A DNA stretch of 39,314 nt from a virus (Duplodnaviria; Caudoviricetes). The notes under the pieces were generated by a model. The model saw only the letters and a program-made list of their open reading frames with translations, ran no database searches and had not been told where the DNA came from. Made by a program: the position numbers and the translations under genes. Shown here one piece after another: positions 5,884 to 33,066 of the stretch. Numbering within the stretch: position 1 is the first letter of the stretch; every line of letters starts with the position of its first letter. The stretch covers positions 1-39,314 of IMG/VR virus record IMGVR_UViG_3300035670_000569, one strand, 5' to 3'.

Positions 5884-6231
5884 ATGACAGACCGCTACAC
5901 CGAACTGGTACGGCAGGCGTATGAGGCGCAGCAAGCCCGTGAAGGCGAGCGCTATCAATCGCTCACCTCCGACCTTGCCCAGATTGACGCCGATCTGGAA
6001 GCGCTCGCTGCTAAGCGTGAACAGGCCGTTGCTGCCCTTGAAAGCATGGATGACGCCGTTGAAGCCGCCAAGGAAGCGCTTGTCACGTATTTCAGCGGCG
6101 AGGCTGACGACGACATGTTCGAGCCGGTAAAGCCTGACGTGTCGCAGTATCTCGACCCGTGGGCAGATCATCCGTCCAGCGATGAGTTCTCCACCCCCCG
6201 CGCTAACGGCGCTTATGCCGAAGCTGACTAA
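5884..6231 (+). CDS. Acidic coiled-coil hypothetical protein
   Basis: MTDRYTELVRQ..., RBS GGAG. Confidence 0.65.
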   Translation: MTDRYTELVRQAYEAQQAREGERYQSLTSDLAQIDADLEALAAKREQAVAALESMDDAVEAAKEALVTYFSGEADDDMFEPVKPDVSQYLDPWADHPSSDEFSTPRANGAYAEAD

Positions 6232-8285: not shown

Positions 8286-8564
8286 ATGGCCCAATCTGTC
8301 ACCCTAGACGCCAATGACGAAACCAACCCCGCAAGCGGCACGTTTGTGGTCCCTCGCGGCCAGACAGCCAGCTACTCGGTAGACATCACCGGCACCATCA
8401 CGGTCACGCTACAGCGCCGTATTGGTGGTACTGCGTGGATCGATGTAGAAACCGGCTACACGGCAGACACCACAAAGCAGATCGAAGCCCCCGGCGAATA
8501 TCGCCTGATAGCCTCTGGAACTTCTGGAGGCTCTGCCGTCACCATCCTGGCGCTAGACGTATGA
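8286..8564 (+). CDS. Small beta-rich virion protein (possible spike base/decoration)
   Basis: GTITVTLQRRIGGTAWIDV; RBS GAGGA. Confidence 0.55.
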   Translation: MAQSVTLDANDETNPASGTFVVPRGQTASYSVDITGTITVTLQRRIGGTAWIDVETGYTADTTKQIEAPGEYRLIASGTSGGSAVTILALDV

Positions 8565-9109
8565 CCGACCGCCTCGTCAAAGTGTTGCAACAGCTTTTGG
8601 CTTACGACCCCGAAACGGGAAAACTATTCTGGAAGGCAAGGCCAACCGAGATGTTCCCTTCGGCAAAAGACGCAAAAACGTGGAATACCACATGGGCAAA
8701 CCGTGAGGCGTTTACTGCGGTACACCATAACGGCTATTTTGTAGGCGCTGTGTTTGCTAAAAATTATAGAGCGCACCGTGTAATTTGGGCAATGCATTAT
8801 GGCGAATGGCCAAAGGGACAAATAGACCACATCAACGGTGACAAGCGAGATAATCGCCTTGGCAATTTACGTTGTGTCACGCACCAAGAAAACGGAAAAA
8901 ATCAAAAACGCAGGTCAACAAACACCAGCGGGGCGACCGGGGTTGATTATGTTGCGCGGTTAAGAAAGTGGCGAGCCCAAATAAAAGATGGAAAAAAAGC
9001 CGTTCACCTTGGTGTTTTTCCAACGTTTGAAGAGGCACTAAGCGTCCGAAAGGCTTGGGAAGCAAAACTGTCTTACCACGCAAATCACGGGCGGGTTTGC
9101 AATGACTGA
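8561..9109 (+). CDS. HNH homing endonuclease with C-terminal AP2-like domain
   Basis: YDPETG, RAHRVIW, IDHINGDKRDNRLGNL, NTSGATGV, KWRAQI, HLGVF; AT-richer than its flanks. Confidence 0.9.
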   Translation: MTDRLVKVLQQLLAYDPETGKLFWKARPTEMFPSAKDAKTWNTTWANREAFTAVHHNGYFVGAVFAKNYRAHRVIWAMHYGEWPKGQIDHINGDKRDNRLGNLRCVTHQENGKNQKRRSTNTSGATGVDYVARLRKWRAQIKDGKKAVHLGVFPTFEEALSVRKAWEAKLSYHANHGRVCND

Positions 9110-9464
9110 CCGGCTGATCAAGGTTTTGCAACAATCAAAGACGATCCTGCGGGGCCTCAAGCCTCGCGGTAACGCCATCGTGGCCACACAGGACGAAAAC
9201 GAAACGCTTGACTACAGCGTCAACTGGTCCGGCTGGCTTGGCACAGACACCATTGCAAGCGTCTCCAACGTCGTCACTGGCCTCACAATCTCCAACGCCA
9301 GCAACACAACGACAACCGCCACGTTCCGCCTCTCTGGAAGCATCTCCGGCTGGCTAGAGCACCGCATCACCACAGCAGGCGGGCGCACCAAGGAGCTGCT
9401 GATCCTGCTGGAGGTGTCTGGGTATCCTGTCAGTTCGGATTATGGGCTGCGCATCCGCGCTTAG
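9102..9464 (+). CDS. Virion fibre-adaptor-like protein
   Basis: LDYSVNWSGWLGTDTIAS...RITTAGGRT. Confidence 0.6.
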   Translation: MTDRLIKVLQQSKTILRGLKPRGNAIVATQDENETLDYSVNWSGWLGTDTIASVSNVVTGLTISNASNTTTTATFRLSGSISGWLEHRITTAGGRTKELLILLEVSGYPVSSDYGLRIRA

Positions 9465-21718: not shown

Positions 21719-24700
21719 ATGTCTGAAAACCCTTTTGCAAAGTACGGTTCGCCGCAGAGCGGTTCCGGCAACCCTTTCGCAAAATATGGCCCGCCCCCCG
21801 GCGCGGATGAAGACATTATTGAACAGTACACTCAGGACATCCAGCGCCGTCTTCAAGGCGGCGCCTATGACCGCGCCGTGGCATCCCGTCTGCAAGACCC
21901 TGCCACGCTTCGCCGCATGGCCGAGATTGAAGCAGAGCGCAATGGCTATCAACCGCCAAAACAAGACGACAAGATGGGCCGTCTGGCAACGTTTGCCACG
22001 GCCTACGGCCAAGGCGGTACGTTCGGGTTCGGTGAGGAAATCTCCGGTGCGGCTGACTTCGTTGGCGGCACCGCAATGGGCCTTGTGCGGGGTGAAGGGC
22101 TTGGCGCGATCGAATCCGGCAAGCAGGCGTATTCTGAACGGGTCGCCAAAGACCGCGCCGTTATCAACAAGGCGAAGGCTGACAATCCTTACACCTACAT
22201 CGCAGGCGAGCTGACCGGCGGTGTGGTGACGACCGCGCCGCTGCCGGTTGGCCTGACTGGCGCGGGTGCTCGCACAACGGCCCAAGTTGGCCTTCAGGCC
22301 AGCGCCAAGGGCGACAAGCTGGCAAAACTGGCTCAGGCATCCACGGGCGCCCGCCAAGCCAGACTGGCTGCAAAATCCGCAGCCCTGAAAGCCAAAGCCG
22401 CAAAGCTGGCCCTTCCGGCGCAGACGATAGGTCAGGCTGTGTCCCGAGCTGGCGGACGGGTTGCGGAGGCGACCGGCAAGGGAATGGGCTACGGCGCAGG
22501 TTATGGTGGCCTGTATGCGGCAGGTACGGCAGAGGGCGGTATCCCCGAGCGTCTGGACGAAGCGGCACAAGGCGCAGCATTCGGTGCAGCGGTGGGCGGT
22601 GTTCTTAGCCCGGCGGCGCAATTTGTTGTGGCCCCGATTGTCGGCAAGGCTGGCTACAGCCTGTTTACCAATGCTGAGAACAAAGCGCTGGACATGATCC
22701 TGACCCGCGCTGAGCGGTCTGGCACGTCGTTGCAAAAGGTGCGGGATGACTTCGACCGCTGGCAGAAGTCTGGCGAAGTTCCCGAGACGCTGGCAGAATT
22801 GATGGGTCCGAACGAGCGCAGCTTGCTTTCGGCAATGATTACGGTGAACCGCGAAAGCCGGGAGCAAGCGGCTAATGTGTTCGTCAACCGTGGCCGGGGC
22901 GAGGTGGATTGGCTGGAAGATGCGTTTGCGCGTAGCTTCGGAGCACGGCGCGGTGACTATGCCAAGGCGCAGTCAGAAGCAGCAAGAGCGCGCGTAGAAG
23001 ACCCGGAACCGCTTTATGCAGCCGCGCACTACGGTAAGAACAAAACCCTCAAACCGCTTGACCCGCAAAAGCAGGCCAGCCTTAATAATATCCTTGCCGA
23101 TGAGGATGATGTTGGCCGGATCATCAAGGATGCCGCTTCGGACTTGAACCGCATGGGCCACAAAGCGGCACGCGATGAAGTCCGCATGTATGGCGAGGCA
23201 CTTCAGGCCGCCAGACGCGGTGAGCGGGTGCAAATCCCCAACCTGTCTGTTCAGGCTGCGGACTATATTGAACGCGCCATTAACCAAAGCTACAAGGCTG
23301 TTGGCGGCGGTTCTGGCGAAATCTCGGGGAGCATTGCGGGCTGGCGTGCGCTTCGCAACAACGTGCGCGCAATTATCGACGATACGGGCATCGGTGACGC
23401 GCGAGCGACTGCCGCTGAACGCATCCGGCGCGGCGAACTGCTGAAGGAAGGCTTAGACATTATGAAGCCTTCCGTCGATGTGGACGACGTGAACCGCATC
23501 ATGCAAGGCATTCCAGACGCCAACATTCCCGCCGCATCAGATGAGGGTCGCAGGGCTTATGGCGTCGGTGCTGCCCGAGCCATTGCCAACGAACTTCGCA
23601 ACGCGCCGAACATGGGCGGCTTTGCAGATGCGACCCGCAAGGTTGCCCGCACGCCCGCGCTCCGTGACAAGCTGGAAGCTGCGCGCCCGAAGGTGCTTGT
23701 CACTGATCCGCAAATCCTGGCCATCCGCGCCCGCCTTGCGGCAGGAAGGAAGCTGACCAAAAAGCAACAGGCCCGAGTTGATAAGCTGGGGCCGCAGTTT
23801 GCTGAAAAGATTGGCTCGGTTCAAACCAAGGCCAACGCTGCCTTGGATGAAGCCATTGAACGCGCCTCCAATCGCGCTCAGTTTGGCGTGGACATGGTGG
23901 GCAACAGCAAGACCGCGTTCCGTCAAGGTGACGTGACCGATGCGCTGGCTGATGATGGCATCTCCGCACAGATCGGGCAAAGCGTCTCTGACCTGTTGGC
24001 AGGCGGCCCGGCAATGGCAGCAAGCCAAGTGGCGCAACGCTTTGGCCGCGACATTGGCCGCGCCATCAGCCAGCCGCGCATCCTTCGCCCGAACATCAAC
24101 CGCGCCGCGACTGACATCCTGCTTTCGACCGGCGACCAGATTCCGGCGCAAATTGCTAGACTGGCAGCGCGTGCTGCGTCTCGCAAAATGGGCCGCATCA
24201 CGTCGCGCGGATTGCCTCCGCCTGTCGGCGGCGTTCCCCCCACCGCACCGGGCACGCCCCCACGCGGCACACCCCCCTCCGGCTCTCCCACCCCATCCCC
24301 CAACGCTCTCGCCCCGCAAGGGCCGATCCGGGCGGCTGGGTTTGGGGGCTTTGGCGGGAAGAAGCCGCCCGCTGAGCGCACGCAAGACACGATTAGCCGC
24401 GAGATCAAGGACATCGAGAAAAAGCTACGCCGCAAAGGCTACACGCTGAACGAGGCTGAAACGCTGGCCGAGGAAGGCACGCTGCCGCCCGAGCTTCGCG
24501 GACTGATGATCCAATACGGCGACCTTGTGCGTGAAAGTGGACGGATGCAGGGCGCCGCACTTCGCGCCAAGGGCGGCGTAGAAACTGATCCCGAATACCT
24601 TCGCGCCGAAAGCGAAATGAACAAGGCGATGGATGACGTTGCCAACGCTGAATATGAAATTGCTCGCGAACTGAGAGAGCGGGGCCTCAAATGGGAAGGC

Positions 24701-26278
24701 GATGACGCCGACTTCATGGGCGTCGTTGACCAGCTTCGCCGCGAAGGAAGGCTGAGCAATTACCTTGCGTCCCGCGTGGAAGATTTGCGCGGTGCGTCTA
24801 CGCGCATGTTTGACGCTGAAGCCAAGATGAAAGCGCGGGTGCAAGCATTTGCGCCAAAGTCTCAGGGCGCTGGCGCTTTGCGAGGCGACCTCGGCAACGC
24901 CCTAGCAGGCGCAGGCCTTGGCGCAGCAGGCCCGGCAGACAGCAACGAGGAACGGCTTCGGAACATTGGGATTGGTTTCGGTGTTGGCCTCGGTGCGCGC
25001 CGGTTCGGCAAGGCGTTTGGTGCCGAGGCGGATGATGTGGCGACGGCTGGGATGCCCCGCACGCCGCAGCAAGCCGCCAAGTTCGAGACCCCCGGAAGCC
25101 CTGAATGGGAAGCCGCGAAAGCCAAGGGCCTTGATATGTCCCAAGCGGGCCGGATGGCGCGGGCGAAGGAGATGGGGTTCGATACGGATACGGTGCTGTA
25201 TCATGGGACGCCAGACCGCCGCCCGATTGATGCTGAGGGCTTCAAGACGGCGCGCGAGCGCAATCAAGAGTTCCTGACGCCAGAGGCTCGCAGCGGTGAA
25301 AAGGGGCCTTACTGGTTCACCGAAAACCGCAAGAAAGCGCAGTCCTACGCTGACGATTCGAGAGCGTTTGATAGCCAAAACGCCGAACCGGCAGTATTGC
25401 AAGTTTTCTTGCGGAAGCCAAGCAATCCGCTTATAATCGACGCTGGCGGAACGGTGTTTTCTGACATTCCGCGCGATAGGGTTCTTGCGGCTCTTTCGCC
25501 CGAAGCGCTGGCAAAAATTCCGCAGAATTGGCGCAGGCCGGGCGGTGACAGTTTCCGAAGCGACGACATCGTAAAGATTGCCAGAGACGCAGGCTTCGAC
25601 GGCATTCAGATTCGGAACGTCATTGATGATTACTCTGGCCAAGGGCGTCCGGGCACCACTTACGCGACGTTCGACCCCTCAAACATCCGCTCCGTAAACG
25701 CCGCCTTTGATCCAGACAAGGCCGCATCCCCCATCCTCACGGCTGGCGTAGGAGGCAAACGCCCGCCCTCAAAAAGCGAGCTTCGCAACGCGCTTTCTGG
25801 TACACTCCAGCAGCCAGCAACCCCGCTTGGAAAAGGAGCAACAAACATGATGGGTTCTATGGAGCCTCGCCCGCCAAACGCCCCGCCAACACAACGCTCG
25901 CCACTGCTTCCCGACGATATGTCTATGGAACGCGCAGGCGCCTTGCTTCGTGAAACGCCGCCGGAAAACTGGCCAGAATGGGCATGGAAGTACGAGAGCG
26001 AAACTGTCAGGGCGCTCCTGAAGCAAAAAGCAACGCCGCAGGAAATCAAAGCCAAGACGGGCCGGACAGTTGTCAAGGGCATCGGGTCGAACAGCCCGCC
26101 TATCGTATTCCCGCCTGGAATTGACGAAACGCGCGCCGCCCAGATGATCATGGAAGTCCCAGACGGTAACATGATGCCGGAACGCTGGATGGATGATTAC
26201 ATGCGGACGCGAGACGACTTGATGCGTATCCGCTGGAACCGCCTTCAGGCAATGAGAAGCAAGCAACCCAAACCATAG
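21719..26278 (+). CDS. Large ejection/polyvalent protein (gp16 position) with ART-PolyVal-like domain
   Basis: NPFAKYG twice, QGGTFGFGEEI; YHGT...YWFT...AGFDGI...FDPSNIRS at ~25120-25720. Confidence 0.8.
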   Translation: MSENPFAKYGSPQSGSGNPFAKYGPPPGADEDIIEQYTQDIQRRLQGGAYDRAVASRLQDPATLRRMAEIEAERNGYQPPKQDDKMGRLATFATAYGQGGTFGFGEEISGAADFVGGTAMGLVRGEGLGAIESGKQAYSERVAKDRAVINKAKADNPYTYIAGELTGGVVTTAPLPVGLTGAGARTTAQVGLQASAKGDKLAKLAQASTGARQARLAAKSAALKAKAAKLALPAQTIGQAVSRAGGRVAEATGKGMGYGAGYGGLYAAGTAEGGIPERLDEAAQGAAFGAAVGGVLSPAAQFVVAPIVGKAGYSLFTNAENKALDMILTRAERSGTSLQKVRDDFDRWQKSGEVPETLAELMGPNERSLLSAMITVNRESREQAANVFVNRGRGEVDWLEDAFARSFGARRGDYAKAQSEAARARVEDPEPLYAAAHYGKNKTLKPLDPQKQASLNNILADEDDVGRIIKDAASDLNRMGHKAARDEVRMYGEALQAARRGERVQIPNLSVQAADYIERAINQSYKAVGGGSGEISGSIAGWRALRNNVRAIIDDTGIGDARATAAERIRRGELLKEGLDIMKPSVDVDDVNRIMQGIPDANIPAASDEGRRAYGVGAARAIANELRNAPNMGGFADATRKVARTPALRDKLEAARPKVLVTDPQILAIRARLAAGRKLTKKQQARVDKLGPQFAEKIGSVQTKANAALDEAIERASNRAQFGVDMVGNSKTAFRQGDVTDALADDGISAQIGQSVSDLLAGGPAMAASQVAQRFGRDIGRAISQPRILRPNINRAATDILLSTGDQIPAQIARLAARAASRKMGRITSRGLPPPVGGVPPTAPGTPPRGTPPSGSPTPSPNALAPQGPIRAAGFGGFGGKKPPAERTQDTISREIKDIEKKLRRKGYTLNEAETLAEEGTLPPELRGLMIQYGDLVRESGRMQGAALRAKGGVETDPEYLRAESEMNKAMDDVANAEYEIARELRERGLKWEGDDADFMGVVDQLRREGRLSNYLASRVEDLRGASTRMFDAEAKMKARVQAFAPKSQGAGALRGDLGNALAGAGLGAAGPADSNEERLRNIGIGFGVGLGARRFGKAFGAEADDVATAGMPRTPQQAAKFETPGSPEWEAAKAKGLDMSQAGRMARAKEMGFDTDTVLYHGTPDRRPIDAEGFKTARERNQEFLTPEARSGEKGPYWFTENRKKAQSYADDSRAFDSQNAEPAVLQVFLRKPSNPLIIDAGGTVFSDIPRDRVLAALSPEALAKIPQNWRRPGGDSFRSDDIVKIARDAGFDGIQIRNVIDDYSGQGRPGTTYATFDPSNIRSVNAAFDPDKAASPILTAGVGGKRPPSKSELRNALSGTLQQPATPLGKGATNMMGSMEPRPPNAPPTQRSPLLPDDMSMERAGALLRETPPENWPEWAWKYESETVRALLKQKATPQEIKAKTGRTVVKGIGSNSPPIVFPPGIDETRAAQMIMEVPDGNMMPERWMDDYMRTRDDLMRIRWNRLQAMRSKQPKP

Positions 26279-32514: not shown

Positions 32515-33066
32515 TTACTCATCCCTGCCATGATGCTTTGAAAAACCATTTCTGGCGGCTGCCCTCTGTCTTACGGCTGCCGCTTCTTCTACTGTCGCAA
32601 ACAAACCTAGATAAACTTCTTTCCCATTCACTTTAACGCGAGCCCTCCACATCTTTGTTTGAGAGTGCCAGCCGACTCCAGCAACTCCGCTGATGTTGTC
32701 GCTTCGGCGTTTTGTGTTTTTGCTGTTTTCTTGATGCGACGCCTCCTGCAAGTTGCTAAGTCTCGTGTCGCTTTTGTTTCCCGTGATGTAATCCATCTCA
32801 TCGGCTGGCCATACGCCGTGCACAATAGCCCAAATGATTTTGTGTGCCCTATACGGATGATCCAAAATTGATGAAACTTTGTATCCGTAGGGGTCCGTTC
32901 TTGTGAATGCTTCTCTGTTTGCGTACTTGGTATTCCACGTTTTGCAGTGTCGCTCACTTGAAAACATGCTAACCGGCCTTTCGCGCCAAAACAGCTTTCC
33001 CGTCTCCGGCTCATACCGCAGCAATTGACGCAGCAGTTCGGGCGATGGTATTTCACGATCAGACAT
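32515..33066 (-). CDS. HNH-AP2 endonuclease homologue with substituted active site
   Basis: YEPETGKLFW, RAHKIIW, MDYITGNKSDTRLSNL in place of IDHINGDKRDNRLGNL, AP2-like WRARV...YLGLF; RBS GGAG. Confidence 0.85.
   Translation of the reverse strand: MSDREIPSPELLRQLLRYEPETGKLFWRERPVSMFSSERHCKTWNTKYANREAFTRTDPYGYKVSSILDHPYRAHKIIWAIVHGVWPADEMDYITGNKSDTRLSNLQEASHQENSKNTKRRSDNISGVAGVGWHSQTKMWRARVKVNGKEVYLGLFATVEEAAAVRQRAAARNGFSKHHGRDE

Follow-up and report, generated by a model that had tools for sequence, protein, structure and literature searches.

A phage HNH endonuclease gene begins with the first 11 codons of the Gp77-family gene that follows it

The window, by which we mean the whole 39,314-bp stretch of DNA that was analyzed, is a complete phage record with direct terminal repeats at its ends. 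The locus studied here runs from a 92-amino-acid (aa) gene through a 182-aa HNH endonuclease gene and a 120-aa Gp77-family gene (gp77) to the gene for the small terminase, and Pfam identified terminase, a P22-like portal, and capsid downstream of it (Table 1). The ATG of the HNH gene overlaps the stop codon of the 92-aa gene (ATGA, 8561 to 8564), and the HNH stop codon (9107 to 9109) falls within codons 2 and 3 of the second copy of the gp77 start. Both starts are thus coupled to a preceding stop, as had been noted from the sequence before this analysis. A scan of the plus strand for promoters and terminators detected none. Elsewhere in the window, a 1,519-aa protein of the virion region (21719 to 26278) carries an ART-PolyVal-like domain that scores 30.9 bits against a Pfam cutoff of 31.2.

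Table 1. Coordinates of the features at the HNH/gp77 locus
Feature	Position	Strand	Remarks
Upstream 92-aa gene, no assigned function	8286..8564	+	Flanks the insertion on the left; its stop and the HNH start share ATGA
First copy of gp77 codons 1 to 11, which is the HNH N terminus	8561..8593	+	Likely the resident start (profile switch, allele identity)
182-aa HNH endonuclease (HNH_3, phrog_99, weak AP2 domain)	8561..9109	+	Conserved motif residues present
541-bp cassette: HNH body plus second copy of codons 1 to 11	8594..9134	+	Missing from empty alleles
Second copy of gp77 codons 1 to 11; restores the gene; codons 2 and 3 give the HNH stop	9102..9134	+	
120-aa Gp77-family protein, predicted fiber-tail adaptor	9102..9464	+	PF23148, Foldseek

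The product of the downstream gene matches PF23148 with 51.9 bits (cutoff, 27). Its best Foldseek match is the fiber-tail adaptor of phage GP4 (8jou_B; E = 3.1e-5, rmsd 1.9), and we predict that it serves as a tail-fiber adaptor. In the AlphaFold model of Gp77, residues 4 to 8 form a strand (mean pLDDT of 91). The subfamily to which this protein belongs has a conserved N-terminal extension of ~28 residues (9102 to 9190 in the window) that lies outside PF23148, contains predicted strands, and is missing from shorter homologues.

The nuclease was identified by its HNH_3 domain (Pfam, 82.4 bits against a cutoff of 24.8) and by a phrog_99 match over residues 6 to 181 (E = 2.8e-61). It retains D89, H90, N98, N102, and N111, which are invariant or nearly so across 108 sequences. 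The label "HNH-AP2" given to it in the sequence-only reading stands for the HNH_3 part; the AP2 part is weak, at 18.2 bits under a Pfam cutoff of 33.3. The closest solved structure is that of I-HmuI (PDB 1u3e; sequence E = 2.2e-5, Foldseek E = 4.8e-3), an intron-encoded nickase, whose match to the window HNH covers only residues 53 to 134. AP2 structures come next among the Foldseek matches (E = 0.12 to 0.15, probability of 0.99 to 1.0). The AlphaFold model of the nuclease has a mean pLDDT of 96, with residues 3 to 12 helical in a prediction that leans on an alignment dominated by native HNH leaders. The family consensus at positions 9 to 13 is L-R-Q/K/E-L-L, which the hybrid L-Q-Q-L-L of the window protein fits, so in the model the captured residues may replace the native first helix. 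A second phrog_99 HNH-AP2 gene lies on the minus strand of the window (32515 to 33066). It has kept a native leader, and its start is preceded by a purine-rich stretch. Its conserved D-H and D-N-R positions read D-Y and D-T-R, and this copy is therefore likely inactive.

Recomputed alignment of the two starts bore out the reported match between MTDRLVKVLQQ and MTDRLIKVLQQ: 26 of 33 bases and 10 of 11 residues are identical between 8561 to 8593 and 9102 to 9134, and six of the seven base differences are synonymous, the other being the V/I change. The likeness ends at codon 11 and does not extend farther upstream. The HNH body is also AT-richer than its surroundings, as claimed earlier: its GC content is 48% (GC3, 45%), whereas both the downstream gene (GC3, 74%) and the window as a whole stand at 59%. 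The next-best 33-mer match in the window scores 22/33 against the first copy and lies at 5884 to 5916, in a third gene with the same first four residues; it is probably a chance match, and we rejected it as part of the element.

Chance or convergent N termini, or an assembly artifact, could in principle give such a repeat, and we regard both as very improbable. The match is short, and both protein families favor L at position 9 and Q at position 11. Against chance, when HNH/next-gene pairs were permuted, no more than 1 of the 10,100 attained the peptide prefix score of 46 seen between the HNH protein and its next gene, and two independent proteins share the same start (see below). Against an artifact, a misjoin would not produce seven base differences, and both copies are spanned with no mismatch by single contigs from run X1 (958 bp) and run X2 (1,038 bp), these runs possibly being the window's own source.

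The 11 residues are of host type. This kind of N terminus occurs in 67 of 86 Gp77 homologues and in 2 of 119 HNH homologues, P0090 and P0091, which are 75% and 68% identical to the window HNH. Among HNH homologues, only these two also share its C-terminal residues, those encoded in the overlap with the gp77 start, their genomic context being read from protein termini rather than seen as DNA. Scored against a gp77 profile and an HNH profile, residues 2 to 11 of the window HNH give 34 and 0.9 bits, respectively, and from residue 12 on the HNH profile is the better fit; across all three nucleases the gp77 scores range from 34 to 37 bits and the HNH scores are ~0, with the flip at 11/12. These counts, the profile flip, and the native leader on the second HNH of the window together indicate that the nuclease carries host sequence, in agreement with the in-frame capture of a host start proposed earlier. 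We found no HNH at an unrelated locus that begins MTDRLxKVLQQ. Apart from the query, a protein search with residues 1 to 40 found just two ordinary HNHs; it missed P0090 and P0091 and was therefore insensitive.

The captured residues themselves vary. The four positions that differ among the three HNH N termini all hold residues frequent in gp77 proteins (rough chance probability of 0.001), and residues 2 to 11 of P0090 are identical to those of 7 of 67 gp77 proteins. Together, these observations suggest that the first copy is renewed from recipient alleles. We rejected the GTG/V start of P0090 as evidence, since its cluster mates are written with M.

Alleles without the nuclease read straight through. 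An HNH gene lay directly upstream of gp77 in none of 42 distinct junctions from viral and metagenome contigs. The window's own upstream gene was present at eight of these junctions, as five close homologues and three more distant ones. In the five close cases (L013, L015, L016, L019, and L185; 86 to 93% identity), it runs directly into gp77. A contig from a run of another study (X6) joins 8572 to 9117, skipping 544 bases and inserting 3, for a net loss of 541 bp. This figure equals the offset between the two starts (9102 − 8561) and gives the cassette its size, its limits being defined only to within the 11 codons, since the precise crossover point among them cannot be fixed. The upstream gene thus passes straight into gp77 in HNH-less relatives, the outcome that the sequence-only reading had proposed to look for, and in the window the second copy restores the host gene. 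Filled and empty alleles both exist, and presence of the nuclease at this conserved site is optional. The X6 contig and the orthologues refute a chance or artifactual origin of the repeat. The 541 bp consist entirely of coding sequence, which makes splicing unnecessary, and Pfam found no intein domain at the locus.

Because HNH-less relatives read straight through, the element likely spreads, like similar elements in yeast, by cutting the uninterrupted gene. We propose that the HNH gene is a homing cassette lodged in gp77 after codon 11, whose nuclease would nick or cut the start region of uninterrupted alleles and so spread the cassette; from the sequence comparisons, we give this reading a probability of roughly 0.7.

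Searches for further filled alleles returned little. A 3′-junction pattern gave two unrelated matches and no further filled allele in viral contigs, a 5′-junction pattern gave no match in metagenome contigs, and runs X1 to X4 contained no empty-allele joint. Cultured phages held no close gp77 relative (2 records, 35% identity). In one contig (L178, 160 to 710), a different HNH gene lies between gp77 and the small terminase gene, overlapping both at its ends, with no duplicated start. The rarity of filled alleles (none at the 42 junctions; start-bearing nucleases in three protein clusters of 1, 1, and 3 members) and the degenerate appearance of the other HNH-AP2 gene in the window would fit an insertion that the phage tolerates and that is passed on passively or moved by general recombination, its nuclease no longer driving spread. 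We consider this improbable, because the motif residues and both overlaps are retained in three proteins that are 25 to 32% diverged and because the AT-rich composition marks a foreign origin.

We then compared the two copies with the starts of empty alleles. The alleles closest over codons 12 to 110 (L001, L007, and L012; 267 to 270 of 297 bases) match the first copy at 30 of 33 bases and the second at 25 of 33; against them the second copy is the outlier (P = 0.008 to 0.015) and the lowest-identity block of the gp77 gene. L006 and L014 (255/297) point the other way, with the first copy as outlier (P = 0.001 and 0.036, respectively); L013 favors neither copy. Empty contigs in runs X6 and X7 resemble the first copy at codons 1 to 4 and the second from codon 6 on, a mosaic pattern that crossovers within the duplicated stretch would give. 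Polarity at the gp77 locus is therefore mixed: which copy appears to have arrived with the element differs with the allele used for comparison.

The second copy had been described as recoded. The seven differences are real, yet they fall within natural allelic variation: among 17 empty alleles, the median pair identity over the first 33 bases is 24/33, and no more than 26 bases are shared in 85% of pairs. With 85% of pairs at least as different as the two copies, we rejected deliberate recoding as a demonstrated fact. The second copy is better read as a foreign allele, apparently one of the natural variants of a different lineage, because its differences lie within ordinary allelic variation. 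One of its codons is needed at the locus, since ACT at codon 2 forms part of the HNH stop.

The earlier proposal to scan for HNH N termini that match the next open reading frame (ORF) was carried out, and the layout recurs, including at two portal genes. The screen for such start capture began with 160 distinct HNH ORFs from HNH loci and gp77 loci, which gave 150 at 85% identity. Another 49 were dropped because they had no start candidate or because no ORF of at least 50 aa followed at −20 to +40 bases, which left 101 loci, the window included; 803 HNH matches from cultured phages lay outside the screen. A prefix score of ≥25 against the own next gene was found at 4 of the 101 loci (3 of 100 without the window), with 0.01 expected, and a score of ≥18 was found at 7, with 0.47 expected. 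Apart from the window, two of these loci, L082 and L299, were compared with empty alleles.

At L082 (2477 to 3072), in the order terminase, HNH, portal, the nuclease has captured 13 codons of the portal gene. Empty alleles (L397 and L398) match the nuclease copy at 38 of 39 bases and the restored copy at 22 of 39. An HNH lies upstream of the portal gene in 2 of 61 portal loci, one of which is L082 itself. At L299 (917 to 1551), about 17 codons of a different portal gene are captured. The closest four of its 14 HNH-less relatives (L381 to L384) match the nuclease copy at 45 to 46 of 51 bases and the restored copy at 35 to 36 of 51. One of the four is identical over 51 upstream bases, and three have other upstream sequence. 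At both loci, comparison with empty alleles makes it clear that the resident start sits on the nuclease and that the working start is foreign.

Weaker candidates were seen at L058 (2501 to 3070, portal), L306 (helicase-like), L096, L310, L287, and L280 (primase-like, together one clade), and two other genes (L055 and L266; L301). The 7-residue match at L306 may be convergent with native HNH leaders. At L430 (459 to 971), an HNH sharing 38% identity with the L082 enzyme ends about 30 bases before a related portal gene.

The polarity results bear on a further explanation, in which an ordinary intergenic homing endonuclease gained the gp77 start once by microhomology recombination, the first copy having since become a permanent piece of the nuclease, the downstream start being the resident one, and the cut site lying elsewhere. 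Mixed polarity at the gp77 locus would fit such a one-off gain, as would the natural microhomology offered by HNH leaders (L-R-Q-L-L at positions 9 to 13; an M-x-D-R start in 3 of 117). Free-standing endonucleases of T4 are described as cutting hundreds to thousands of bases from their own genes (PMC2988022), so the target of the nuclease need not be the gp77 junction. We nevertheless hold this explanation to be unlikely: the three HNH N termini vary like gp77 alleles, unlike HNH leaders, and at L082 and L299 the copy on the nuclease is clearly resident. A one-off microhomology gain may instead account for the origin of the cassette and not for its present mode of action.

As a homing cassette, the element would operate as follows. 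After terminating on the upstream gene, ribosomes would reinitiate at 8561 to produce the nuclease, and a second restart at 9102, within the HNH stop, would yield whole Gp77 without splicing. During coinfection, the nuclease would introduce a nick or a cut around codons 1 to 12 of an empty allele, and the two start copies would act as homology on both sides in repair. The recipient's start would thereby become the nuclease N terminus, while the donor's foreign start would pass to the restored gene. The left neighbor of gp77 is variable (16 upstream groups among 35 alleles), and because the start copies would supply both homology arms, homing is proposed to be independent of it. The filled allele would resist the nuclease, we propose, for two reasons: the insertion splits the site, and the copy that restores the gene is a different allele. 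The captured residues would substitute for the first helix of the nuclease, which may restrict where insertions survive. A 33-bp homology arm is short, and this calls for caution about the homing reading.

The strategy of replacing a gene end is already known outside phages. WHO elements replace the 3′ end of the yeast gene FBA1, and the displaced fragment, which is unexpressed, is the proposed second homology arm (PMC7282813). As at the phage locus, the endonuclease gene has the restored host gene on one side and a displaced piece of that gene on the other, splicing is not involved (PMC7282813; bioRxiv 10.64898/2026.08.13.744650), and resistance is proposed to come from allelic differences. 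Peculiar to WHO are a LAGLIDADG nuclease with a zinc finger, related to HO, the 3′ half of a nuclear gene, separate transcription, and occurrence in clusters. The phage nuclease, in contrast, has HNH_3 only; its element replaces the first 11 codons of a PF23148 gene, at the 5′ end, and translation of the displaced piece supplies the nuclease N terminus. Cleavage has been shown for WHO and is putative for the phage HNH, which is known here from its sequence.

Mitochondrial mORFs bring in foreign C termini, at atp6 in Allomyces and at atp6, atp9, cox2, and nad3 in Glomus (PMC3630166). They resemble the phage element in carrying in a foreign gene end, with the native end closer to relatives, as at L082 and L299, and differ from it in being C-terminal, LAGLIDADG or GIY-YIG, and organellar (PMC3630166). 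One survey also mentions a free GIY gene duplicated together with the atp9 N terminus (PMC7487136), so 5′ cases in fungi have had some mention before. At the phage locus, two diverged copies of one host gene end flank the nuclease and the host frame is whole without splicing, which is the gene-end-replacement design. By analogy, the element would work like WHO and the mORFs, mirrored to the 5′ end, but it belongs to neither family.

Among phage systems, the free-standing homing endonucleases (mob/seg of T4, mobE of Aeh1) share with it the enzyme class, a promoterless cassette, start/stop overlaps, and core-gene neighbors (PMC2988022). They are described as intergenic with distant cut sites, whereas here residues 1 to 11 of the HNH are gp77 derived and the host gene is interrupted. 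Hidden HNH insertions of the ShiLan type, in actinophage methylases, are likewise splicing free and lie within a phage gene; there, however, the host frame stays open through the insert with the HNH out of frame (PMC11855218), whereas the HNH studied here shares the frame of the host start, and the host gene begins again behind it. HNH-AP2 genes of phages have been described (PMC2248197, PMC10448857), and passages of these two accounts describe no captured or duplicated host start; PMC2988022 nowhere speaks of duplication. We found no published description of start capture in phages in a literature coverage that lacked most subscription journals.

If the cassette reading is right, the shared peptide indicates the likely target of a free-standing HNH from its sequence alone, and since it marks the likely target, specificity becomes directly testable. 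There is also a warning for annotation: the N termini of start-capturing HNHs are host sequence. More tentatively, at odds that we put a little short of even, start capture may be a third in-gene lifestyle beside introns and inteins, repeatedly evolved by phage HNH-AP2 nucleases. The displaced codons would then serve as homology arm, translation start, and first helix, renewed at each homing and folding as a strand in Gp77 and a helix in the nuclease. It would occupy at least about 3% of such loci, portal genes included, and would reshuffle the N termini of virion proteins between lineages. One source assigns WHO to a third class of homing elements and calls that class rare (bioRxiv 10.64898/2026.08.13.744650). 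A 5′ mirror of it in phages, with an unrelated nuclease family and at several genes among 101 loci, would, if true, make the design convergent and common.
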